64,000 nt of DNA from NCBI GenBank assembly GCA_048886185.1, contig JBHLKY010000007.1, forward strand, positions 99,092 to 163,091, in the 5' to 3' direction. Source of the stretch: Candidatus Hermodarchaeota archaeon. Its GTDB lineage: Archaea; Asgardarchaeota; Heimdallarchaeia; Hodarchaeales; Hodarchaeaceae. Positions 4,956 to 38,645 of the stretch are shown here, in pieces. Each line of letters begins with the position of its first letter. The first letter of the stretch is position 1. Position numbers and translations under genes: made by a program. The notes under the pieces are model-generated. The model did not search any database. It was not told the DNA's origin and saw nothing but the letters and a program-made list of their open reading frames with translations.

Positions 4956-6827
4956 TTGCTTAATCGTTTTTTATCCCAATTAATCAGAGATAATAAAGAA
5001 CGAGAAACGACTAAAGTAAAAACTCTCAAGCAGATTGAACTGTTTATATTAAAAGATACACTCAAAGAGGCTCTACAAGAAGTTGACACTCTATTCTCCA
5101 ACGTTGAGTTAAATGAAGCAGATAAGTTGCAGATTCACATTCTCAAAAGTTTGATTCTCACTCAAATAGGAAACTTTGATACAAGTCTAGAGCTTGGTGA
5201 ACAAATATATTTAGAATGTCAACGATTGGAAAACCCCATATTAATTATTGATGCAATCATTTCACTTGCAAACACTAATTTTAGGCTTGATAAACTTGAT
5301 AAGTGTCTGGATCTAATTGACAACGGTGAAAAACTACTTAGTACTATTACCAAGGGAAATGAAGAAGAAATTATAGATAGAACTGTTGCATTAACATATC
5401 TAAAAGGGAAGGTTTTCTGGAAAAAAGGTGAACTTGATCAAGCTCTCAAGTTTATACAGGAAAGCTTTTCTTTTAAAGAAGAAAAGAGTACTTTATATGA
5501 AACTGCTGACTATCAAAACATCTTGGGGATACTTTTTGTGGGAAAGGGAGAGTTCAATAAGGCATTATATTATTTTCAAACCAGTCTTAAGATGTTCGAA
5601 GAACTCGGTATGAAATCCTCAATCGTTAAGTCCTATAATAATATAGGATTAATACTTTGGAAAAACGGTAACTTAAGGGAAGCTTTAGGTCATTATAAAA
5701 TGAGTCTATCCTTAAGTGAAGAACTCAAAAACAATCAGTTTATCGCAGTTACATCATTGAATATAGGTCTGATTTACTGGAATATGGGAGAATTAGATAA
5801 AGCTTTAAATTATTACCAGAAAAGTTTGGAAATAAGTGAAGAAATTAAAGATAAAGATTCCATGGCATCTTGTTTTAATAATATAGGAATTATATACCAA
5901 TTCAAGGGTGAATTGGATCAATCATTAGAATACTACCAGAAAAGCTTAGCTTTAAATGAAGAACTAGGCATAAAACCAGATATAGCCCTTTGTCTTAATA
6001 ATATTGGTGAAATATATCACATGAAAGGATCCTTTGAAGTTGCGAAAGAATACTTCACTAAGAGCTTGATTTTATTTGAGGAAGTTGGTGATAATTATAA
6101 TACAAGTTTAGCTCTTTATAATCTGGTTTTGGTTTCCATTGATAGTGGATTAACAAAGGATTCACAACTATATCTTCAGAAATTACAAGAGATTTACATT
6201 AAAGAGGATAAAAGGCATATTAGTCAAAAATTTCGTTTAGCCAAAGCAATCTTACTAAAAGAAAGTGAAAGGGTAATCAATATTGCTGAAGCTCAAAAAT
6301 TATTGTATGAAGTCGCTCAAGAAGAAATGATTAGTCTTGAAAATAACGTCACTGCAAATTTAAATCTCTGTGAGCTCCTTTTACAAGAATTACGAGCTAC
6401 TGGTAATGAGGAAATACTAATGGAATTGAAAGAGGTAGTATTTCGATTGGTAAGTGTTGCAGAAGGACAAAATTCGTACATCTGGCTTGCAAAGACCTAT
6501 TGGTTACAATCAAAAATAGCCTTACTAGAGTTTGATTTAGAACGATCACAAGAATTATTGACCCAAGCAGAATTAATCGCTAATGAGAAAGGACTAACAA
6601 AACTTCTAAACAAGATTTCAAGCGAACGTGATATTCTATTAAATCAATTTAACAAATGGGAACATGTTCTTGACCAAAAACCTTCTGTCAGCGAAATCAT
6701 TGAATTGACCCAAATTGAAGCAATGGTAGAGCGAATGATCCAGAAAAAATTAGACACTTCAGATGAAGAAGTAATGCAGTATGCGATTGAATCTCGACGT
6801 TTGGTTGACATGTGGGATAAGCATTAA
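4956..6827 (+). CDS. tetratricopeptide (TPR) repeat protein
   Basis: 623 aa. It contains at least six canonical 34-aa TPR units, for example YNNIGLILWKNGNLREALGHYKMSLSLSEEL and FNNIGIIYQFKGELDQSLEYYQKSLALNEEL. TTG start. Confidence 0.8.
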   Translation: MLNRFLSQLIRDNKERETTKVKTLKQIELFILKDTLKEALQEVDTLFSNVELNEADKLQIHILKSLILTQIGNFDTSLELGEQIYLECQRLENPILIIDAIISLANTNFRLDKLDKCLDLIDNGEKLLSTITKGNEEEIIDRTVALTYLKGKVFWKKGELDQALKFIQESFSFKEEKSTLYETADYQNILGILFVGKGEFNKALYYFQTSLKMFEELGMKSSIVKSYNNIGLILWKNGNLREALGHYKMSLSLSEELKNNQFIAVTSLNIGLIYWNMGELDKALNYYQKSLEISEEIKDKDSMASCFNNIGIIYQFKGELDQSLEYYQKSLALNEELGIKPDIALCLNNIGEIYHMKGSFEVAKEYFTKSLILFEEVGDNYNTSLALYNLVLVSIDSGLTKDSQLYLQKLQEIYIKEDKRHISQKFRLAKAILLKESERVINIAEAQKLLYEVAQEEMISLENNVTANLNLCELLLQELRATGNEEILMELKEVVFRLVSVAEGQNSYIWLAKTYWLQSKIALLEFDLERSQELLTQAELIANEKGLTKLLNKISSERDILLNQFNKWEHVLDQKPSVSEIIELTQIEAMVERMIQKKLDTSDEEVMQYAIESRRLVDMWDKH

Positions 6828-6832
6828 ATTAT

Positions 6833-7726
6833 TTACTTGAAGAGTTCGATGGATCCAAGTTTCAATACAGCTTCCCCAGCTTCATTTTTAGTCTCAAAAC
6901 CAAATACTTTACATGTTTCATTTTCCTCAAGTAACCATGCTTCTGTAGTAAGCGTATCATTCATAAAAACTGGCTTTGAAAACCTTGATTTTATTCTCTT
7001 GACCTTCCTCGGATCACCCTCAGCAAGATTATCCATGATGGCTTGAGTAGCAAACGCCAAGGTACATAAACCATGAAGAATTTTATCAGGAAGTCCAACC
7101 GACATAGCAACATCTCTATCTACATGAATAGGATTATCATCGCCAGATGCAGCAGCATAACGTACAGATTGATCCGATGTGACTTTCATCTGCTTACAGA
7201 CTATTACTTGTCTTTCCTTGTCTTTTTTTGTCTCTTTTCTTTTTTTAGATTCTTTTCTTGGTTTTCTGAAGAACAATCCAGCTCGCATCTCAAAGACAAG
7301 TTCCTCCTCGACCTTTCCTGAACTTTTAGCCCATAAAATATCTCCTGACTCTTTTATATCGATCGATTCTAATTTAATAGAAGTATTTACTTGGTCATGT
7401 ATTTTGAGTGGGCGATAATAAAGAATCTCGTGTTCACCATGGACCATTCGGAAAATGTCAAGATTAAGAGAATCATCCAATACAATCCTTTTCATTGGCT
7501 CAATGAGCATTGTAACTGGAAAGATGGGTGGAATTAATAATTTTTCAATATCCGATTCAAAATATCGCGAATTGGTCTCATTGGTTGCTTTGGCATAAGC
7601 TATTACTTTATCAGGGTCTACTATTTCTATCGATCCCTCATAAACTCTACCAACAATATTAGGGTCAAGGCCACTATAAGTAGACTCAAATGAGTCGGAA
7701 TTCTCTGGTACCATAATAACTTTCAC
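6833..7726 (-). CDS. MaoC-like dehydratase with two hotdog-fold domains joined by a Lys-rich linker
   Basis: 297 aa. The C-terminal hotdog domain has the GDDNPIHVDRDVAMSVGLPDKILHG motif of MaoC/(R)-hydratase. The linker is RKPRKESKKRKETKKDKERQ. Confidence 0.7.
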   Translation of the reverse strand: MKVIMVPENSDSFESTYSGLDPNIVGRVYEGSIEIVDPDKVIAYAKATNETNSRYFESDIEKLLIPPIFPVTMLIEPMKRIVLDDSLNLDIFRMVHGEHEILYYRPLKIHDQVNTSIKLESIDIKESGDILWAKSSGKVEEELVFEMRAGLFFRKPRKESKKRKETKKDKERQVIVCKQMKVTSDQSVRYAAASGDDNPIHVDRDVAMSVGLPDKILHGLCTLAFATQAIMDNLAEGDPRKVKRIKSRFSKPVFMNDTLTTEAWLLEENETCKVFGFETKNEAGEAVLKLGSIELFK

Positions 7727-7806
7727 CTATTTAACAAAGAATTCATAAAAAAATTTAATGGTTGCTAGAAAAAAATTTCATCTAGGGATAGTTTCTTATA
7801 GTTTGG

Positions 7807-9255
7807 GTGGTAAAATTGTCAACACAATTATTAGAATGGATTGATAGAAATCGAGATCAGTTCATTACAATTAGTAACCGAATCTGGAATTTAGCTGAAC
7901 TTGGATTATTTGAAACAGAATCCTCAGAATTATTAGCATGTAATCTCGAAGAAGCTGGTTTTACTGTCAAACGGGGGATTGCAGATATGCCAACAGCCTT
8001 TGTGGCTAGCTATGGGACTGAAGATCCTATCATAGCCATACTAGGAGAATTTGATGCATTACCAGGGCTTAGTCAAGTGGTGGAACCAGTCAAGAAGCCC
8101 CTTGAAGAAGGTAAACCTGGACATGGTTGTGGTCACAACCTATATGGTGCAGCTTGTCTGGCAGCATGTTTGGCTGTCAAAGAGGCAATTGAATCAGGAG
8201 AAGTAGTAGGAACCATTCGATTCTATGGGTGTCCCGCCGAGGAAAATGCGGATGGAAAAGGGTGGATGATAAATGCTGGTGCATTCGATGATGTTCATAT
8301 TTCACTGACATGGCACCCTTGGGACATTAATTTTGTAATGGCAAATAACTTCCAAGCGATGTACAATGTTACTTTCCAGTTTAAAGGGCAAACAGCTCAT
8401 GCTGCGGGGGATCCGTTCAATGGAAGATCTGCTCTTGATGCTGTAGAGTTAATGAACGTTGGATGTAACTATCTTCGGGAGCACATGATTCCTGATGCTC
8501 GCGTTCACTATGTTATAACAAAAGGAGGTCAGGCACCTAATATTGTACCTGATGAAGCTGAGGTATGGTATTTTGTTAGAGGGCCGAGGATTGCAGATGT
8601 TAAAGCTCTATATTCAAGGGTGCTTAATGTTGCGGAGGGGGCGGCTTTAATGACAGAAACCAAAGTTACTGTAACTCTCCTTGGTGGTTCAGCAAATCTC
8701 TTACTTAACGAAACATTAGAAAATTTGTTACATGAGAAAATGATTGAAATTGGGCCACCTAAATATTCTGAAGACGAGTTCGTATTTGCCAAACGAATTC
8801 GTGAGTCTTTTCCTGAAAATTATTTTGATAACACACTGGCCGTCCTCCCTCAAGATGCCAAACCTTTCTTAGAGCGATTTAGAAATATGGTGTTTTGTGA
8901 TACCGTTATTCCGATTTTTGGTAGAGGTATTACCCTTGGTGGATCAACTGATGTTGGTGATGTCTCTTGGATTACTCCATTGGCGCAATTTGCCACTGTA
9001 TGCGGGGCAATTGGAACTCCTGGTCACTCATGGCAAGCAGTTGCACAAAATGGTATGAGTATTGGACACAAAGGGATGATATATGCTGCAAAAATTCTTG
9101 GACTTGCATCGTTAGAGCTAATGCGAAAGCCAGAGTTGGTTGATAAAGCGAGAAAAGAGTTTGAAGAGAAGATCAAGAAAACTCCATTTGAGAGTCCCTT
9201 ACCTGAGGGTGCTAAACCTCCTATTGAATATTACAGAAGATTGTATAAGCAATGA
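7807..9255 (+). CDS. M20 family metallo-amidohydrolase (AbgB/aminobenzoyl-glutamate utilization-like)
   Basis: 482 aa. It has the HGCGHNLYG metal-binding motif and the acidic ..PAEE.. and dimerisation regions typical of M20D. GTG start. Confidence 0.75.
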   Translation: MVKLSTQLLEWIDRNRDQFITISNRIWNLAELGLFETESSELLACNLEEAGFTVKRGIADMPTAFVASYGTEDPIIAILGEFDALPGLSQVVEPVKKPLEEGKPGHGCGHNLYGAACLAACLAVKEAIESGEVVGTIRFYGCPAEENADGKGWMINAGAFDDVHISLTWHPWDINFVMANNFQAMYNVTFQFKGQTAHAAGDPFNGRSALDAVELMNVGCNYLREHMIPDARVHYVITKGGQAPNIVPDEAEVWYFVRGPRIADVKALYSRVLNVAEGAALMTETKVTVTLLGGSANLLLNETLENLLHEKMIEIGPPKYSEDEFVFAKRIRESFPENYFDNTLAVLPQDAKPFLERFRNMVFCDTVIPIFGRGITLGGSTDVGDVSWITPLAQFATVCGAIGTPGHSWQAVAQNGMSIGHKGMIYAAKILGLASLELMRKPELVDKARKEFEEKIKKTPFESPLPEGAKPPIEYYRRLYKQ

Positions 9256-28022: not shown

Positions 28023-29465
28023 CTATTTTAAGTTATTAGCTGCAATTTTATCTAATTCATTTTTTAGGTTTTCATCAACAGCTTGTCTAGGTGGACGTTT
28101 GCTTAATTTAATAGCAATTTCTTTTGCTCTGTTACGAGCTGATGTTTCACCACCTTTCCTCCATTGATCACGGGTCTCTCTATTTATGATCTGTAAATTT
28201 TCAACTGTAAAAGGGAAATAAAGCTCTTTTCTGAATAAACTTAGCGTAGTTGGGTGAGATAGTAATGAAATATTAGCATCATAATCACTAAGAATATCTT
28301 GAGCAAATGGTACGCCATGATCTGTGATCCCTTGAAGAAGATGTTTAACCATTCCTGCGATTTCATTATCAATGATTAATTTCTCGAAGCTTTGAGTTGA
28401 TTCGAAATCCAGCATACCAGGCCCAGAAATCATATTGATTCCAGCGAGACCAGCTAGCAATGCCCCCATGCCTCCCTCAAATCCTGCTTGAGCATCAGGA
28501 ACTTTTGAGTCAGATAATGTCATATATGCATGTGTTGGTAGATTTAAGAACTTTCCCATTTGAGCATCTGCAATATTAATCATCATTGTCTCAATTGCCC
28601 CCATGGGGGTCGTTCCATTCCTCATATCAAATACTGCTGGAGATCCTCCCCATATAACAGGAGAATTTCTCTTGGCTAGTTGTGAAATTACAAGTCCTGC
28701 CAAAGATTCAGCGGTATGTTGAGTGACACAGCCAATTAAAGTTATAGGAGCTGTTGAACCTGCAAGAGGCATACTAATGAATTCTGATGGGATTCCGCTT
28801 CGTGCTGCGTCAATTACAGATTGAGTAGTTAGATTTGACCACATCAAGGGGGGACTTGGGCATGCATCAAAAATCGCCAAAGGTTTTTCAGCTAGTTTTT
28901 CCTTTGAAGTTCTTGTTGCCTCCAATAACTCTTGCATTATAGAAAAGCTTTCTATTCTAAAAGTGCCTGTAACAATCGGTTTGGAACAATTAATTAATGC
29001 GATGTACAAACGATGCCAATCTTGAGCATTATTAGGGACATCAGAACAAACAAGTGAGGTTGATTGAGCTGCAAAATTGGGTAGATGGTCCACAATTTTT
29101 GAAAACATTATGAAATCTGAAGATAATGCTTCTCGTATTGTCTTTGTTTCTAGATCTTGTACGAAAATTGCAGCAGATCCAGGATCAAAGTGAATATTAT
29201 CTTTTGAGAGCTGGATTACTTCTCTTCCTTCTCTATCATATAATTTGATTTCAGAGGGAGCGTTGGTGCGTAGCTTTTCAACTAGATCCTCTGGTATAAA
29301 GTACCTTAAATTTTTATAATGGATCCCTTCCTCCTGTAATAAGCTTTGAGCATCAGGATTTTCAATTATTACTCCTTGGTTGTGAAGAATAGCTTTAGCT
29401 TCATTGAATATCTTTTTCATGTATTCATTGGTCAATAATTCAGTTTTGGGTCTTAAAATTGTCAA
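28023..29465 (-). CDS. MttB-superfamily (trimethylamine methyltransferase-like) substrate:corrinoid methyltransferase, non-pyrrolysine type
   Basis: 480 aa. The N-terminus (YMKKIFNEAKAILHNQGVIIENPDAQSLL) and the overall length fit the MttB TIM-barrel. No in-frame TAG interrupts the frame. Confidence 0.75.
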   Translation of the reverse strand: MTILRPKTELLTNEYMKKIFNEAKAILHNQGVIIENPDAQSLLQEEGIHYKNLRYFIPEDLVEKLRTNAPSEIKLYDREGREVIQLSKDNIHFDPGSAAIFVQDLETKTIREALSSDFIMFSKIVDHLPNFAAQSTSLVCSDVPNNAQDWHRLYIALINCSKPIVTGTFRIESFSIMQELLEATRTSKEKLAEKPLAIFDACPSPPLMWSNLTTQSVIDAARSGIPSEFISMPLAGSTAPITLIGCVTQHTAESLAGLVISQLAKRNSPVIWGGSPAVFDMRNGTTPMGAIETMMINIADAQMGKFLNLPTHAYMTLSDSKVPDAQAGFEGGMGALLAGLAGINMISGPGMLDFESTQSFEKLIIDNEIAGMVKHLLQGITDHGVPFAQDILSDYDANISLLSHPTTLSLFRKELYFPFTVENLQIINRETRDQWRKGGETSARNRAKEIAIKLSKRPPRQAVDENLKNELDKIAANNLK

Positions 29466-29471
29466 AAACTA

Positions 29472-30359
29472 TCATCTTCCAGTAAGTTCGTCAATAATTT
29501 TGCGTAATAGGTTAATATGGTTTGGTTCAGTACCACAACATCCTCCAACAATTTGGCCATCATAATCAAGAATATGTTTGATATCTTCTGCAAATGTCTC
29601 AGGGGATTGTTTGTAGACTGATTTTCCATTTTCTAGTTTAGGACTGCCAGCGTTTGGTTTTATTGAAAGTGGGATATCTGGAGCAGCAGCTCTCATAGTT
29701 TTTATCAGCTCAAGAAAATCATTACTACTAAGAGTGCAGTTCGCTCCAACAACAGTTACTCCTGAATCAATTAATTCAGAGACACAGTCAAAAACAGTGT
29801 TTCCCATAATAGTAAAGAATCCCCTTGGGGTTCTTTGATAAGTCATACTAGCAATAATAGGTTTGTCTGATTCAGTTTGAATAGCTAATATTGCTGCTTT
29901 CATCTCTCGGATATCAGAGAATGTTTCAATGTGCCACGCATCAATATAGGGTGCGAGCGCTTGTGCTTGCAACTGAAAGCTCTGTTTTAAATCATCAATA
30001 GATATCTTACCTACTGGCGGAAGGAATTCTCCAGAAGGGCCAATATCACCTATCACGCACCTTCCTGGAGGACAGACACTTCTTAATATTTCAGCTGAGC
30101 TTTTATTAATGTCTTTGAGTAGGTTTTGAATACCATAGTTTTGTAAAGCAATATTATTTGCTCTAAAAGTAGCAGTTTGAACCAGATCGCTCCCCGCTTT
30201 GTAATATTGATCAAAAACTTCTTTAATATCATTAGGACGATCTAAATTCCATTTATCAGGAGCTTCTCCTGGTTTTAATCCTCGACGAATTAATTCGGTA
30301 CCCATAGCTCCATCAAACAGAAGAATTTTCTTTTCGCGTAATAAGGAGAGAAAATCCAC
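29472..30359 (-). CDS. homocysteine S-methyltransferase domain protein (MetH N-terminal module-like, zinc-dependent thiol methyltransferase)
   Basis: 295 aa. LLFDGAMGTELIRRGL resembles MetH LILDGAMGT. A Cys is followed by IVGGCCGTEPNHI, the Zn-binding GGCCGT motif. Confidence 0.8.
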   Translation of the reverse strand: MDFLSLLREKKILLFDGAMGTELIRRGLKPGEAPDKWNLDRPNDIKEVFDQYYKAGSDLVQTATFRANNIALQNYGIQNLLKDINKSSAEILRSVCPPGRCVIGDIGPSGEFLPPVGKISIDDLKQSFQLQAQALAPYIDAWHIETFSDIREMKAAILAIQTESDKPIIASMTYQRTPRGFFTIMGNTVFDCVSELIDSGVTVVGANCTLSSNDFLELIKTMRAAAPDIPLSIKPNAGSPKLENGKSVYKQSPETFAEDIKHILDYDGQIVGGCCGTEPNHINLLRKIIDELTGR

Positions 30360-30380
30360 GAATTATCTCACCATAATAGA

Positions 30381-31034
30381 TTATTCAAGACCTAGTAACT
30401 GTATAGCTAATGTAACTGCAGCTACTGCATTTTCAGCATAACCATCTGCACGACACTCGTCTACCCACTTTGATGTAACAGGAGCACCTCCTAGCATTAC
30501 CTTGAATTTATTACGAATGCCCTGTTCTTCGAGTAACTCAATAATTTTCTTTTGTCCTATCATTGTAGTAGTCAGTAGAGCAGATACACCAATAAGATCA
30601 GCTTGCTGCTTTTCTGCCTCTGCGATAATGGTTTCAGCTTTCACATCTGCCCCTAGGTCAATTACATCAAATCCATTAGCTTTTAACATTGTGGAGACTA
30701 TTGTTTTTCCAATGGTATGAATATCACCCTCAATTGTGGCCATAACAACCTTACCTTTCGTCTTTCTTTCCCCAGAACCTTCCATATGGGGCGTAATAAT
30801 ATCGACAGCTTCTTGCATCACTTGCGCACCTCGCATAAGTTCTGGAAGAAAGAATTCACCTGCATCCCATAAATCACCAACTTTTTTGATGCCATTACCA
30901 AAGCCTTTTTCAATTACTTCAAGCAATGGGAGGTTTTCGTCTAAAGCTTTTTGTGCAAGGCTTTTTGCTTTGTCCATATCAAGTTCCACAACACTATTAG
31001 CCATCTCTTCGTAGATTGGTTCCATTCTAAACAC
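30381..31034 (-). CDS. cobalamin-binding corrinoid protein (MtmC/MttC/MtgC-like)
   Basis: 217 aa. It has an N-terminal helical cap and a Rossmann-like domain with the GDIHTIGK (DxHxxG) His-on B12 ligand motif and ...S.L..G. Confidence 0.8.
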   Translation of the reverse strand: MFRMEPIYEEMANSVVELDMDKAKSLAQKALDENLPLLEVIEKGFGNGIKKVGDLWDAGEFFLPELMRGAQVMQEAVDIITPHMEGSGERKTKGKVVMATIEGDIHTIGKTIVSTMLKANGFDVIDLGADVKAETIIAEAEKQQADLIGVSALLTTTMIGQKKIIELLEEQGIRNKFKVMLGGAPVTSKWVDECRADGYAENAVAAVTLAIQLLGLE

Positions 31035-34248: not shown

Positions 34249-35064
34249 GTGAAGGAAAATTTTTCTTTGAATTCTGTTACCAATGAAAATTGTTTGCAGT
34301 TCATTCAGAAATTACCTGATAAGTCTATTGATATCGTACTTACAGATCCACCTTACGCCATATCTTCGGGTAATAAGTTGTCAATGAGAAATATTAAAAA
34401 ACAAAAGGGATTTGGTGGAGATTGGAACATTATTAATGAAAAATGGGATATTTTTTCATTTCAGGATTATTGCAGATTGATAGAAAATATGTTGAAAGAA
34501 ACGTACAGGGTTTTAAAACCAACAGGAACAGTATTTATCTGTGGAACTTACCATAATATAGGAATTATTAACTATTTTGCTCTTAAAACTACTTATAATA
34601 TTATCAATGAAATTATCTGGTTTAAGAGGAACGCTTTTCCAAATTTATCCCAAAAATGTATGACCGCTTCTCACGAGAACATTTTATGGTTAAGTAAATC
34701 AGATTCTTGGAATTATAATTATGAAGCCATAAAAGAAACAAGTTATCATTTTGATAAGATAAAAGAATCTGATAAGCAATTACGGTCCGTATGGGATATT
34801 CCAAATAATAAAGAGAAGGATGAGCTATTATATCGGACGGTTTTTACAGATCAATCATATTGGATTAAATCCCAAAAACCTCTTAGACTCATTGATAGAT
34901 GCATAGAACTGGCTTCCCAACCCGGAGATATTATCGCAGATTGGTTTAGTGGGTCAGGGACAACCCTAGTTTCAGCCTCAAATCATTCTTTATCCTTTAT
35001 TGGATGTGAAATCAACCCCAAATATGTTGAAGTAATCCGTTGGCGATTAGAAAGAGGAATTTAA
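34249..35064 (+). CDS. DNA methyltransferase, beta-class N6_N4_Mtase (DPPY motif IV, probably N6-adenine), apparently an orphan
   Basis: 271 aa. Motif IV IVLTDPPY lies near the N-terminus and motif I DWFSGSGTT near the C-terminus, which is the beta-class order. GTG start. Confidence 0.85.
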   Translation: MKENFSLNSVTNENCLQFIQKLPDKSIDIVLTDPPYAISSGNKLSMRNIKKQKGFGGDWNIINEKWDIFSFQDYCRLIENMLKETYRVLKPTGTVFICGTYHNIGIINYFALKTTYNIINEIIWFKRNAFPNLSQKCMTASHENILWLSKSDSWNYNYEAIKETSYHFDKIKESDKQLRSVWDIPNNKEKDELLYRTVFTDQSYWIKSQKPLRLIDRCIELASQPGDIIADWFSGSGTTLVSASNHSLSFIGCEINPKYVEVIRWRLERGI

Positions 35065-35181: not shown

Positions 35182-35964
35182 TTATCTAGCGACATTTAGA
35201 ATCGTTTCTCTCATTAATAATGGAAGAAGACCACTTAGAAGATAAACTGGGGTAAGGGGAATATAAAGAAGAATGATAAATGAATCACGATCAATGGAAG
35301 GTATGTTAATTGTTAGAAGAGCTAAGCTGATGAAAAAAATCATTTCTACAATAAGAAAATAAGAAATCTGTTTCAATTTTTGTGGCCAGGAATAAATAAT
35401 AAAGTTTTTTGAACCCAATTTCAGCTCTATTGTCTGATCTACCTTATGTTTGCTTGCAAAGTGAGCGAAAACTAAAAAATAAACTAATTCAAAGTGGCCA
35501 TCTAATGTACCGATTATTTTAGCCAACAGTGAGTTATAAATAGGACTAAGGTCTTCATATGTGAAAGAAAGGATGATCGTTCGTTCGCCTAATGGCTGAA
35601 ATGGCCATAAGAGAGTTACTCCATCAAAATAAACCATATCTAGCGCCACATGAATAAACATTCCAGCTGTTAATCCCACAATAAATGGATAATATATGAT
35701 TGAAGCCGATTTAAAATAAAAATTTGTCAGATAGCCAGTAATAAGGATTATGGCTATTATCACAAGACTGTGGGTCACTGAACGATGGAATGCAATTGCC
35801 ATCTCTTTTTCAGCGGTAAGAAGGAAGATTAAGACACTACCTAGAAGGTCAAGATCAGGTATGACAGAACCCGCTACTAGCCCAATTTTAAGATATTTAT
35901 GATTCTCTCCTAGTCTGCTTGCCAAAAATAATCCTAACAGACCATGAAAACCTGTCGGAGCCAT
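35182..35964 (-). CDS. membrane-bound metal-dependent hydrolase, YdjM/DUF457-like
   Basis: 260 aa. It has the N-terminal FHGLLGL motif, IPDLDLLGS, and HRSVTHSL His clusters within a polytopic membrane protein. Confidence 0.55.
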   Translation of the reverse strand: MAPTGFHGLLGLFLASRLGENHKYLKIGLVAGSVIPDLDLLGSVLIFLLTAEKEMAIAFHRSVTHSLVIIAIILITGYLTNFYFKSASIIYYPFIVGLTAGMFIHVALDMVYFDGVTLLWPFQPLGERTIILSFTYEDLSPIYNSLLAKIIGTLDGHFELVYFLVFAHFASKHKVDQTIELKLGSKNFIIYSWPQKLKQISYFLIVEMIFFISLALLTINIPSIDRDSFIILLYIPLTPVYLLSGLLPLLMRETILNVAR

Positions 35965-36127
35965 AAAAGTATTTCTTCCTTTGTTTTATACCATTAAATT
36001 TCAAATCTTATTGTAAAGTAACTACGGAAACTTTTACTGGTAACTCTTTAATTAAACGCGATATCCTAATTATCTAACTCACCTTAAAATCAGGAGCTTG
36101 AAAGGGTAAAATTTGGAGAAAGATTAA

Positions 36128-36883
36128 GTGACTATTAGAGCAACTGGTAGAATAACACGCGTTTTAAAACAAGCAATGCCACACGGTTTTAGGGGAGTCT
36201 ATAAAATTAACATTGTTGGCTCAACGGGGGCTGGAAAGACTGAGTTTCTGCGATATTTATTAAAAGATCTATTTGAACCCAGTACAGAAGCACCAAGACG
36301 TTCAAAAACCGAAAATACGGTAGATTCAACACACACTTGGTTTCATATTGGTCCTCAGAGCAAACAATCGACGACAACTATAGCTTTAAACCCAGTAGGG
36401 ATTTTATTAGTGCGGACCTTATTTAACTCCATTGAATTCCATCCAGTTAATAAAGTTGACGAATTGCTTTTGCGTGATGACATTGAAGAAATATGGCAGT
36501 TAATATTCTTTGATAATGCTGGTCAAGAAAGATTTGACTTTATGCCACAAATCACAATGCGTGGTGCTGATGCGGTAATAGTTCTAGCAGATGGAACCAA
36601 TATGGCTAGTATAGAAAAGATTTCATATTTTTTAGAACTTATACAAGATGAAGAGTACAGAGCAAGTGGTGGATTAATTCGGATCCCCGTTTTTATTCTT
36701 TTAAATAAGAAAGATTTAATTGAGTACGGTTGTTTTATTGGCCTTAAAAGTGTTCGGCATATGATCGGTTCCTCTGATGAATATGATTTTTATGAAACAT
36801 CAATGAAAACTGGAGATGGAGTTGATGATACAATTAGATCACTGATCTCCCGCCTTCATGAAAAAGCTATTGAAAAGAGATAA
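36128..36883 (+). CDS. Ras-superfamily small GTPase (Rab/Arf/Roc-like)
   Basis: 251 aa. It has G1 GSTGAGKTEF, G3 FDNAGQERF (DxxGQ), and G4 LLNKKDL (NKxD). GTG start. Confidence 0.75.
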   Translation: MTIRATGRITRVLKQAMPHGFRGVYKINIVGSTGAGKTEFLRYLLKDLFEPSTEAPRRSKTENTVDSTHTWFHIGPQSKQSTTTIALNPVGILLVRTLFNSIEFHPVNKVDELLLRDDIEEIWQLIFFDNAGQERFDFMPQITMRGADAVIVLADGTNMASIEKISYFLELIQDEEYRASGGLIRIPVFILLNKKDLIEYGCFIGLKSVRHMIGSSDEYDFYETSMKTGDGVDDTIRSLISRLHEKAIEKR

Positions 36884-36900
36884 TATTCCCATCGTAGGAT

Positions 36901-37218
36901 TTATTCTTTTCTTAATGCCTCTACTGTATCTAATTTCGCTGCTCTCTCGAAGGGATAAAATCCTGCTACCATTATATTTCCTTCTTTAGGATTATCCAAA
37001 GTTCCTAAACAGTTAAGTAATGTATTTTTTCCTGATCCTGAAAATCCCATTACTACAATACAGTCTTCTTTTTTCACCAGTAACTCTACACCTTGAAGTG
37101 CATTCACCATCACTCCTTCTCCTAAATTGTATGTTTTTCGTAGGTTAGTGATTTCAATTGTGAAGTCAGTTTTCTTTTTGTGGAAGGATTCACCAATAAA
37201 ATGTTCCCCTTCTTGATT
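36901..37218 (-). pseudogene. truncated ABC transporter ATP-binding protein (N-terminal 100 aa only, LolD/MacB-like)
   Basis: The frame encodes ...IEITNLRKTYNLGEGVMVNALQGVELLVKKEDCIVVMGFSGSGKNTLLNCLGTL...EALRKE and then stops. The Walker A is present. The Q-loop, signature, Walker B and H-loop are absent. There is no canonical start for the full N-terminus. Confidence 0.55.
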
Positions 37219-37548
37219 TTATTGGTGGAATATGCTTATTAGTGCAGAAATCATAATACTTACTAAAAGAAATAGTAAAATTAGTGTTGGAATGAAAAAT
37301 GAGACCTTTAGGTTATTTAAAAGAGCAACACATTGAAGAAATCTCTCTGCTAGAATAACCATTAATGCTAATATGATATTCATTCTTGAATCAGTTAAAA
37401 TACCTAGTAACCCCAAAATCCCATAAAAAACCATTATAATGGGAATAACGGCCGAAATTGGATATTGAAGGATATTAACAGCTGATTTGAATAATCCAAA
37501 TCTCTCTGCAAGTGAAAAAAGAGTCAGCTTAAGAATAAGATAACTGAG
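37219..37548 (-). pseudogene. C-terminal fragment of an FtsX-like ABC permease
   Basis: The open frame ...LAERFGLFKSAVNIL...MVFYGILGLLGIL...ALISIFHQ resembles the last TM helices of an FtsX/LolE permease. The N-terminal about 300 aa are absent. Confidence 0.4.
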
Positions 37549-37664
37549 ATATCTTCAAAATCAGAAATCGAATCTGAAAATTGATTAATAGTCATCTTCT
37601 ATTCTATATCAAAATCTATCAGTTCTTATTCCTTTCATTAGGCTCTTCATTGATGATCTATTTG

Positions 37665-38645
37665 TCATTTATTCTTATAACGGGGATTTTCTGCTTCAAA
37701 AATTATTCGTTCTATTGTTTTATCAAGGTGATAATTCTCAGGGTAGATTTTGGAATTTTTTGAAGGAGTTGCTTTTTTACCAACTTGTCGTGAAAAGGTA
37801 AATTTTGTAATATCTTCTCCTGTTTTATCTACATACCGTCGTAGTGTTTTAAGGTTTGGAAAGTTATCATTTTCATCAGGAACACCATTTAGACGATGAT
37901 TAGCTATATCCACATACTTTTTGACTATCTCACATCCAATAAAACGTCGATTATTATTTTTAGCTACAACTGCAGTAGTACCAGATCCTATGAACGGATC
38001 TAGAACAATGTCATTTAATTCAGTTGTCGAAAGAATAATACGTGTAACTAAATCTTCAGGAAACTGACATGGATGTTCTGTCTGTTCTTCGTGGTTGTGT
38101 TTGACATTTCTAAAAGCCCAAACGTCTCCTGGGTTCTTTCCACGAGGGTCACTAGTAAATTTGCCGTAGTCCATACCTTGGCGATAATTCTTCTTTTTAG
38201 GATAAATTTGTGGCACACGAATGTCATCTAGGAAGAACTTATAGTTATCAGATTTGGAAAACCAAAGAATTGTTTCGTGACGGTTCGAAAATTTATGTTT
38301 CGCATGCGTTCCATGCTGACGAATCCAGATTATTCTATTCCTTGGAATGAAACCTAATTTAACAAAAATTGGAAAAATAACTGCATCCCATGGGAAATGA
38401 GCTCCATTGTTTCCAACATATGTTCCAACTTGATAGAAAATGGATCCTGTGATCTTAAGTATACGCCAACATTCAGTTAAAACCTTATTAGACCACTCTA
38501 AGTATTGGTTTAAAGTTGTTTTTTTCTCATACTCTTTACCTATTCCATAAGGGGGAGAAGTGACAATCAGATCAATAGTTTCTTCTGAAAGTTTTTTAGA
38601 GAATTCAATAAAGTCCTCATTATAGATTCTATTGTATTTAATCAT
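37665..38645 (-). CDS. DNA methyltransferase, beta-class N6_N4_Mtase (SPPY motif IV, probably N4-cytosine)
   Basis: 326 aa. It has the DLIVTSPPYGIG motif near the N-terminus and the LDPFIGSGTT motif near the C-terminus. An SD site (GAGGT) lies 11 nt upstream. It is co-oriented 17 bp downstream of gltX. Confidence 0.85.
   Translation of the reverse strand: MIKYNRIYNEDFIEFSKKLSEETIDLIVTSPPYGIGKEYEKKTTLNQYLEWSNKVLTECWRILKITGSIFYQVGTYVGNNGAHFPWDAVIFPIFVKLGFIPRNRIIWIRQHGTHAKHKFSNRHETILWFSKSDNYKFFLDDIRVPQIYPKKKNYRQGMDYGKFTSDPRGKNPGDVWAFRNVKHNHEEQTEHPCQFPEDLVTRIILSTTELNDIVLDPFIGSGTTAVVAKNNNRRFIGCEIVKKYVDIANHRLNGVPDENDNFPNLKTLRRYVDKTGEDITKFTFSRQVGKKATPSKNSKIYPENYHLDKTIERIIFEAENPRYKNK

Follow-up and report, generated by a model that had tools for sequence, protein, structure and literature searches.

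A probable one-deletion scar of a MacB-type exporter operon beside an intact Rup3-like GTPase gene in a Hodarchaeales archaeon

Introduction

Among the archaea, Hodarchaeales are at present placed nearest to the eukaryotes. Here we report on a locus of Candidatus Hermodarchaeota archaeon (GenBank assembly GCA_048886185.1, contig JBHLKY010000007.1; order Hodarchaeales in GTDB), at positions 36,128 to 37,548 of a 64,000-nucleotide stretch (contig positions 99,092 to 163,091) that is referred to below as the window. A gene for a small GTPase here meets, tail to tail, a short open reading frame (ORF) resembling the start of an ATP-binding cassette (ABC) ATPase, which raises the question of what left this fragment beside the GTPase gene and to which group the GTPase belongs. 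We consider it highly probable that the locus is the one-deletion scar of a dead MacB-type exporter operon, lying beside an intact, conserved and Rup3-like GTPase gene. The Asgard origin proposed in an initial annotation, which was made from the sequence alone, is borne out, as the exact GTPase protein is annotated at NCBI under 'Promethearchaeota archaeon' (GCA_048941095.1) and its homologs are from Hodarchaeales and Heimdallarchaeota.

The region 36001-37800 is base-for-base identical in six separately assembled contigs, two from NCBI metagenome-assembled genomes (MAGs) and four from Logan assemblies; the locus structure is therefore real and no assembly artefact. The neighbourhoods of GTPase orthologs in relatives (L numbers below) were obtained by exact-protein contig look-ups, and these revealed the intact operon. 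A scan of GTDB genomes with the GTPase alignment found at least 11 loci and, among the matches listed, none from the closest clade.

The intact exporter operon in relatives

An intact operon lies at the same position and in the same orientation in L024, L028 and L029, whose GTPases are 82%, 69% and 53% identical to that of the window (Table 1). In L028 and L029 the order is YdjM, GTPase, then permease, a ~520-aa protein and ATPase, then GluRS; a methyltransferase gene stands between ATPase and GluRS in the 78-82% clade only. Since the arrangement is intact from 82% down to 53% GTPase identity, the adjacency is old.

The ATPase carries an N-terminal extension of ~135 aa with ~3 transmembrane (TM) segments, conserved in the 370-380-aa Hodarchaeales orthologs, and its Walker A motif begins at residue ~185. 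Such a TM extension is unusual for MacB/LolD-type nucleotide-binding domain (NBD) subunits. The ~520-aa protein, which has no family assignment, is always encoded between ATPase and permease (L024 6854-8413, L028 6455-8017, L029 10089-11669) and may be the surface partner or the cargo of the exporter.

Anatomy of the scar

To map the scar, the 781-bp spacer of the window (36884-37664, in minus orientation) was aligned by blastn with that of L024, which is 4034 bp long. On the minus strands (window/L024), colinear blocks are found at 110-277/105-273 and 507-691/506-690, after which the alignment continues directly with 692-763/3909-3980. A single block of 3218 bp of L024 is thus missing in the window, and it comprises the rest of the ATPase gene, the whole gene of the ~520-aa protein and permease codons 1-372. 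This alignment to an intact relative, which the initial annotation had proposed as a check, sets the breakpoint at 36972-36974; no microhomology can be asserted at the junction, the intact reference being ~70% identical at the DNA level.

On the ATPase side of the junction, tblastn of the intact L024 ATPase matched the window over residues ~23-216 (E=6e-61) and the equivalent residues of L028 and L029 matched too, which is well beyond chance. The minus-strand frame from ~37548 to 36901 is open apart from one stop codon. The original ATPase start lies in another frame, where the frame-1 translation, MTINQFSDSISDFEDISVILFLS followed by a stop, matches …SFSSIKDISVILFVS of L024; a +1 frameshift is placed near 37523-37527 and appears as a 1-nt gap in the blastn alignment. 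The NBD head has its best PDB matches in PsdA, MacB, MJ0796 and LolD and is 71% identical in amino acids to L024. In its Walker A motif, the consensus G[PA]SG[SC]GK[ST]T is found in 119 of 120 homologs, and the two substitutions of the window in none of the 120.

On the other side, the permease relic corresponds to residues 373-395 or 374-396 of the intact L024, L028 and L029 permeases (70-74% identity, tblastn) and to the 3' end of the L024 permease gene (75%, blastn). Both halves find their place in the fused ATPase-permease MacB of A. baumannii (5gko), in which residues 9-78 match the relic head and residues 649-671, the C-terminus, match the relic tail. As read from these alignments, the window retains ATPase codons ~1-213, broken, and continued in frame by the last 23 codons of the permease. 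The 69-aa 'ATP-binding cassette domain-containing protein' annotated at NCBI is a head-tail chimera of two dead genes.

Table 1. Features of the window, intact operon of L024 and state of the exporter in relatives
Locus	Feature	Coordinates	Strand	Remarks
Window	YdjM-family membrane metal-dependent hydrolase	35182-35964	-	Pfam YdjM 1.7e-17; divergent from GTPase
Window	GTPase gene	36128-36883	+	251 aa, intact, GTG start
Window	GTPase G1 GSTGAGKT, aa 31-38	36218-36241	+	P-loop GxxxxGK[ST]
Window	GTPase candidate G2 STTT	36368-36379	+	S81, T83, T84 nearly invariant
Window	GTPase G3 DNAGQ, aa 129-133	36512-36526	+	
Window	GTPase G4 NKKD, aa 193-196	36704-36715	+	
Window	GTPase G5-like ETSM, aa 223-226	36794-36805	+	
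Window	Spacer between convergent GTPase and relic stop codons	36884-36900		17 bp
Window	Exporter operon remnant, whole	36901-37595	-	ATPase head + 23-aa permease tail
Window	Short 'ABC' ORF, 70 aa	36901-37113	-	ABC_tran model positions 1-46/137, E=3.2e-7
Window	Permease relic, last 23 codons and stop	36901-36972	-	MVAGFYPFERAAKLDTVEALRKE followed by the stop; FtsX/MacB-type
Window	Deletion junction	36972-36974	-	In-frame join …PKEGNI/MVAGFYP…; blastn vs L024
Window	NBD head relic, first strand to just past Walker A	36973-37164	-	Pfam ABC_tran 1-46/137
Window	Degenerate Walker A GFSGSGKNT	37021-37047	-	
Window	In-frame stop inside former ATPase gene	37219-37221	-	IFHQ*NQ vs IYHHQQQ in L024 (Gln-rich linker)
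Window	ATPase N-terminal ~3-TM extension relic	37222-37527	-	L024 ATPase residues 23-135, 48% aa identity
Window	Original ATPase start and first ~23 codons, other frame	37524-37595	-	ATG 37593-37595
Window	N4/N6 DNA methyltransferase, SPPY motif, 326 aa, intact	37665-38645	-	Pfam N6_N4_Mtase 1.7e-64; bounds relic upstream
L024	YdjM		-	
L024	GTPase, 252 aa		+	
L024	Permease, 395 aa		-	MacB_PCD 2.4e-17, FtsX 1e-22
L024	519-aa protein	6854-8413	-	Signal/anchor-like N-terminus, C-terminal TM, weak CARDB match
L024	ABC ATPase, 378 aa	8429-9565	-	Closest to MacB, LolD, FtsE models
L024	Methyltransferase, 328 aa		-	
L024, L028, L029	Exporter intact			
L025	Permease split by ~150 extra bp			GTPase protein identical to L024
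L026	78-aa permease tail			
L010, L011, L012	47-aa permease tail, internal stop			
L008	No exporter remnant			62-bp spacer
L027	No exporter remnant			35-bp spacer
L013, L014	Operon absent			62-63% identical

The initial annotation had recognized a pseudogenized MacB/LolCDE-type transporter between the GTPase and the SPPY methyltransferase. Both points stand, the relic mapping to the intact FtsX-permease ABC operon of relatives and the methyltransferase gene lying on its far side. Also correct was the statement that the ABC ORF has no Q-loop, signature or Walker B, since only positions 1-46 of the 137 of the ABC_tran model are covered and none of these motifs follows the Walker A region. The ORF does converge on the GTPase gene, over 17 bp and not the 18 bp first given. 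What has to be reversed is the order of the fragments and the placing of FtsX, which had been put ahead of the ABC ORF: that stretch is the N-terminal TM domain of the ATPase, the true FtsX end is 36901-36972, and the minus-strand order is ATPase TM domain, NBD head, FtsX tail. An FtsX identity of the upstream TM stretch (~37222-37548) was rejected, as it had no FtsX match in Pfam or PDB and is colinear with the N-terminal TM extension of the L024 ATPase. At E≤10, Pfam gave no FtsX match either for this fragment or for the 47-aa relic of L010, both being too short or too decayed, and a phmmer search of PDB with the TM fragment returned a chance match to chorismate mutase only.

The relic resembles the MacB/LolCDE (type VII) exporters in its NBD head, closest to PsdA, MacB, MJ0796 and LolD, in its tail, which fits the FtsX C-terminal motif G-F-x-P-x-x-x-A-A-x-L-D-P-V-x-A-L-R, and in the MacB_PCD and FtsX domains of the intact ortholog. 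It differs from them in that merely ~213 broken ATPase codons and 23 permease codons are left; of the four TM helices and periplasmic core of an FtsX permease, the last 23 of ~395 residues survive. The intact archaeal operon itself departs from this type, as its ATPase and permease are encoded separately, with the gene of a ~520-aa surface-anchored protein in between, and the ATPase has the ~135-aa N-terminal TM extension.

It might be argued that the short ABC-like ORF (36901-37113) is a real small gene and not debris, and that the TM ORF upstream of it may be one as well. The junction is in frame, NCBI annotates the ORF under a name, all six assemblies have it, and its NBD head has kept 71% identity to the intact ortholog. 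However, the ORF combines residues ~140-216 of a 378-aa ATPase with the C-terminal 23 residues of another protein, its Walker A deviates at two positions that do not vary in 119 of 120 homologs, every catalytic motif beyond Walker A is missing, and the remnants in relatives are other and non-equivalent ones. A word-indexed protein search with the chimera matched the chimera alone, a result uninformative on origin. The pseudogene call of the initial annotation thus survives the possibility of a short-ORF family, the sole database match being the ORF itself and the sequence mapping onto the 378-aa protein of a relative, and we regard genuine small genes as extremely unlikely.

Insertion of the fragments by horizontal transfer or a mobile element, beside a GTPase gene that never neighboured a transporter, would agree with the closest relatives L008 and L027, in which the GTPase lies directly beside the methyltransferase, and with the variable GTPase-GluRS interval. 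Yet the intact operon is found at the exact position and orientation in L024, L028 and L029, across 53-82% GTPase identity, L010 and L026 have permease-tail relics in this very place, and the fragment is not flanked by repeats, a transposase or a tRNA; an insertion therefore has next to no probability in our view. A repeat search of the window spacer gave short chance pairs only and no insertion sequence (IS) ends, and an Rfam scan of 35900-37800 gave no match. The initial annotation was right that the neighbourhood has been remodelled, but its rearrangement or insertion gives way to a single internal deletion of 3218 bp, together with a frameshift and a nonsense codon, in an operon of ancient synteny.

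In the ancestor of the Hodarchaeales-like clade, YdjM(-) and GTPase(+) were followed by permease(-), the gene of the ~520-aa surface protein(-), ABC ATPase(-) and GluRS(-). In the lineage of the window, one deletion took out 3218 bp from just after the ATPase Walker A to 23 codons before the permease end; its ends were joined in frame, and the retained ATPase head has also acquired the +1 frameshift, the nonsense codon and the two Walker A substitutions. On this comparative evidence, a three-gene MacB-type exporter operon has been inactivated by ordinary gene loss.

Loss history of the exporter in the clade

Relatives show a series of decay states, from the intact exporter to its complete absence (Table 1). 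The 47-aa tails are identifiable as permease ends, since 11 of their 11 PDB matches are to C-termini of LolF, LolE, LolC, MacB or a related permease. In a neighbour-joining (NJ) tree of GTPase and methyltransferase, L024 with the intact exporter pairs with L027, which has fully lost it, and the window groups with L008 and L010, whose breakpoints differ, which suggests several independent deletions of the exporter.

L025 and L024 are from the same sample series, and the permease is split with an 18-aa overlap in the former (6812-8180) and intact in the latter (5640-6827); the cause could be decay within the population or a difference in assembly. A 126-aa membrane ORF of L013 and L014 was considered as a relic of the ATPase TM domain and set aside, having no evident similarity, as judged without formal comparison. 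L013 also has insertions between its YdjM and GTPase genes (5311-6585), namely IS200/IS605-type TnpB-like ORFs and fragments of acyl-CoA dehydrogenase.

At least five relatives combine a lost or broken exporter with a GTPase that is intact and conserved. Because relatives show different, independent deletions, with the GTPase retained each time, we infer that the exporter is dispensable in the clade. The GTPase, kept through every observed exporter loss, would therefore not need the exporter, and their adjacency would be inherited synteny. The two are convergent and hence not co-transcribed.

Every partial relic keeps the permease 3' end adjoining the GTPase stop, which may reflect selection against deletions running into the GTPase 3' region. 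Within this region, a T-rich stretch on the plus strand (~36905-36918) could be a candidate archaeal terminator; a scan for sigma-70 promoters and intrinsic terminators gave results at or below shuffle expectation, with models ill-suited to archaea.

A different view would be that GTPase, YdjM hydrolase and exporter form a functional module, in which the GTPase regulates export or envelope remodelling, and that the scar records the loss of its effector. In favour of a module, YdjM, GTPase and exporter genes remain neighbours in relatives with as little as 53% GTPase identity, the N-terminal helix of the GTPase, which is basic and amphipathic, suggests membrane association, and in CP070760 the relocated exporter again adjoins a YdjM-domain gene and BacA. 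The convergent orientation without co-transcription, the retention of an intact, conserved GTPase in the at least five relatives with a lost or broken exporter, and the distant 230-aa Heimdall subfamily (L015-L017) with neither YdjM nor exporter nearby speak against such a module, and we hold it to be unlikely. Still less probable is a wider version, in which GTPase, YdjM, exporter and ~520-aa protein would be an ancestral, Hodarchaeales-specific envelope module controlled by the GTPase through its amphipathic N-terminus, and the spared 23-78 permease codons would carry the T-rich terminator of the GTPase.

In CP070760, a complete Heimdall genome, the exporter block (L030, 457.6-472.4 kb) lies 1.3 Mb from the YdjM-GTPase pair (L007, 1.749-1.766 Mb). 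It consists of a GluRS C-terminal fragment (241 aa), methyltransferase, ATPase, 519-aa protein and permease, and adjoins BacA and a 453-aa YdjM-domain protein.

The GTPase and its classification

The initial annotation described a 251-aa small GTPase with G1, G3 and G4 motifs, and this gene is present as stated, with GSTGAGKT, DNAGQ and NKKD in the ORF 36128-36883 (+). The 25 residues that precede the first internal Met are conserved among relatives, which supports the GTG start. Compared with the L024 ortholog, nonsynonymous divergence (dN) is 0.13 and synonymous divergence (dS) is >2, a ratio of ~0.06; the gene is intact and under strong purifying selection. Across 102 aligned GTPases, G31, G36, K37, D129, G132, Q133, R135, D155, S161, N193, K194 and D196 are invariant. 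The Pfam Ras match (E=2.1e-13) is confined to residues 123-243, the C-terminal two-thirds of the protein.

The protein has a G-domain fold, with best fold matches to Rab/Ras, and the family profile matched Ypt7/Rab7 (3e-15), KRas, M-Ras and Rab3 in PDB. Its alignment to Ypt7 is in two pieces (20-50 to Ypt7 6-36, and 117-236 to Ypt7 54-174), between which profile positions 51-116 equal merely Ypt7 37-53, leaving ~49 extra residues between α1 and β3. Counted from the motifs, K37-T84 spans 47 residues and T84-D129 spans 45, so that both the G1-G2 and the G2-G3 intervals are expanded. In the AlphaFold2 model (pLDDT 77.4), residues 3-16 form an N-terminal helix, residues 50-85 are poorly defined, and residues 88-118 form an additional strand-helix unit that is modelled with confidence.

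With Rab and Ras proteins (Rab3C 8a4a, Ypt7/Rab7 1ky2) the GTPase shares DxxGQ with the catalytic Gln, NKxD and an ETS(A/M)K-type G5. It differs from them in the ~49 extra residues between the P-loop helix and β3 and in having no C-terminal prenylation Cys, in place of which it has the N-terminal helix; the C-terminus ends in …HEKAIEKR, and none of 23 aligned homologs has a C-terminal Cys, so that there is no prenylation motif.

Some homologs carry the JGI labels 'SAR1 family' or 'SR-beta', and an amphipathic N-terminal helix is a trait of Arf/Sar proteins, from which an Arf-type protein, or else one of MglA type, could be argued in place of a separate lineage. MglA proteins have an Asp-less G3 (TxxGQ) and a partner MglB/roadblock gene, and Arf/ArfR proteins have the G3 DxGGQ. 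The G3 of the window protein, DNAGQ, is neither; its Pfam Arf score of 18.4 bits is under the cutoff of 22.3, no MglB/roadblock gene is near the GTPase in the neighbourhoods inspected, the best sequence and fold matches are Rab/Ras, and the protein carries the two insertions described as unique to Rup3. An MglA-type or Arf-type identity is accordingly quite improbable. The possibility raised by the initial annotation, that the GTPase might group with MglA-like proteins, is answered by the Asp kept in G3 and by the Rab/Ras matches in PDB. It is not a Ras, Rab, Arf or MglA protein proper.

Rup3 is a Heimdallarchaeia-specific GTPase group, separate from RasL, ArfR, ArfL, RagGtr and MglA (Vargová et al., bioRxiv 10.1101/2024.02.28.582541), and it is defined by sequence expansions between G1-G2 and G2-G3 (supplement legend, bioRxiv 10.1101/2024.02.28.582541). 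No eukaryotic relatives were reported for it in that preprint ('Arf family GTPases are present in Asgard archaea', bioRxiv 10.1101/2024.02.28.582541). The window GTPase shows both Rup3 features examined, the two expansions and the restriction to Heimdallarchaeia, and its G1, G3 and G4 are otherwise canonical. About 110 homologs of 230-255 aa were found at E<1e-25, and those strong homologs that are named come from Hodarchaeales, Heimdallarchaeota, Heimdallarchaeaceae or Promethearchaeota, with a single exception labelled Thorarchaeota, a MAG with Hodarchaeales-type synteny around the GTPase. Among the matches, no specific eukaryotic counterpart was evident. The GTPase therefore appears to match Rup3 best, as an insertion-bearing, Heimdall-restricted branch of the Ras superfamily. 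The 'Ras-like' label of the initial annotation holds at the level of the superfamily; the two expansions and the Heimdall-restricted range fit the separate Rup3 group instead of Ras itself. Within the Rup3-like proteins, a Hodarchaeales subfamily has the extra ~20-aa basic amphipathic N-terminal helix and the 230-aa Heimdallarchaeaceae subfamily does not. A second Rup3-like paralog (244 aa) lies in tandem in L028 (4187-4921), directly after the ortholog and before the intact operon.

The helical hydrophobic moment of the protein peaks at residues 3-16 (IRATGRITRVLKQA), where it is 0.74 and the charge is +4. This basic amphipathic helix suggests a membrane association in the manner of Arf/Sar, and the GTPase probably docks on membranes by it, as predicted from sequence and model. 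Since G1-G5 and the catalytic Gln are intact, the protein is most likely a conventional GTP/GDP switch, in which the enlarged switch I/interswitch region would offer a lineage-specific partner surface.

Several points weigh against the reading of a dead exporter beside a Rup3-like switch. The NBD head has kept 71% identity to L024, and inactivation may therefore have been fairly recent; the in-frame junction also leaves a predicted open frame of 70-105 codons. As dS is saturated on the relic (proportion of synonymous differences, pS, 0.75-0.80), dN/dS cannot show relaxed selection. The NJ tree behind the independent losses is nearly star-like and built from two proteins only. The Rup3 assignment is a fit to described features and not a phylogeny with reference sequences, and six GTPase homolog accessions (OLS30588, PWI48521 and UCE12313 among them) had no match in the supplementary text of the Rup3 preprint that was searched. 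The mechanism of the GTPase, finally, is a prediction from its sequence and from a model with low confidence at residues 50-85.

Flanking genes

The YdjM gene adjoins the GTPase gene in L007, L008, L010, L014, L024, L025, L027, L028 and L029. Orthologs of the 37665-38645 methyltransferase are 74-81% identical in L008, L010, L024, L026 and L027. A second N6_N4 methyltransferase gene at 34249-35064 (+), which shares ~28% identity with this one, lies on the other side of the YdjM-GTPase pair; relatives have conserved both genes, and no restriction enzyme gene is evident. A few kb upstream of the YdjM-GTPase pair, L010 has an MmeI-type restriction-modification gene (1-555) and a further small GTPase (1433-1873; 146 aa) with Arf/Ras/Roc matches. 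Elsewhere in the window, at 28023-31034 (-), a cluster of MttB-family methyltransferase, S-methyltransferase and B12-binding corrinoid protein genes suggests the use of methylated amines or other methyl compounds.

Conclusions

What is new at this locus is one more member of a recently described GTPase group; the remainder is ordinary gene loss. The locus is a clean example, dated by relatives, of stepwise operon loss in Hodarchaeales. In the annotation of the public MAG, the 69-aa 'ATP-binding cassette domain-containing protein' calls for a pseudogene flag. Testable leads on the function of Rup3 are offered by the conserved pairing of YdjM and GTPase genes and by the N-terminal helix with its basic, amphipathic character. 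In arguments on eukaryogenesis, the GTPase should not be counted as a Ras, Rab or Arf homolog, as it fits the Heimdall-specific Rup3 side branch; since Rup3 has no reported eukaryotic relatives, the GTPase of the window says little about Ras/Arf ancestry.

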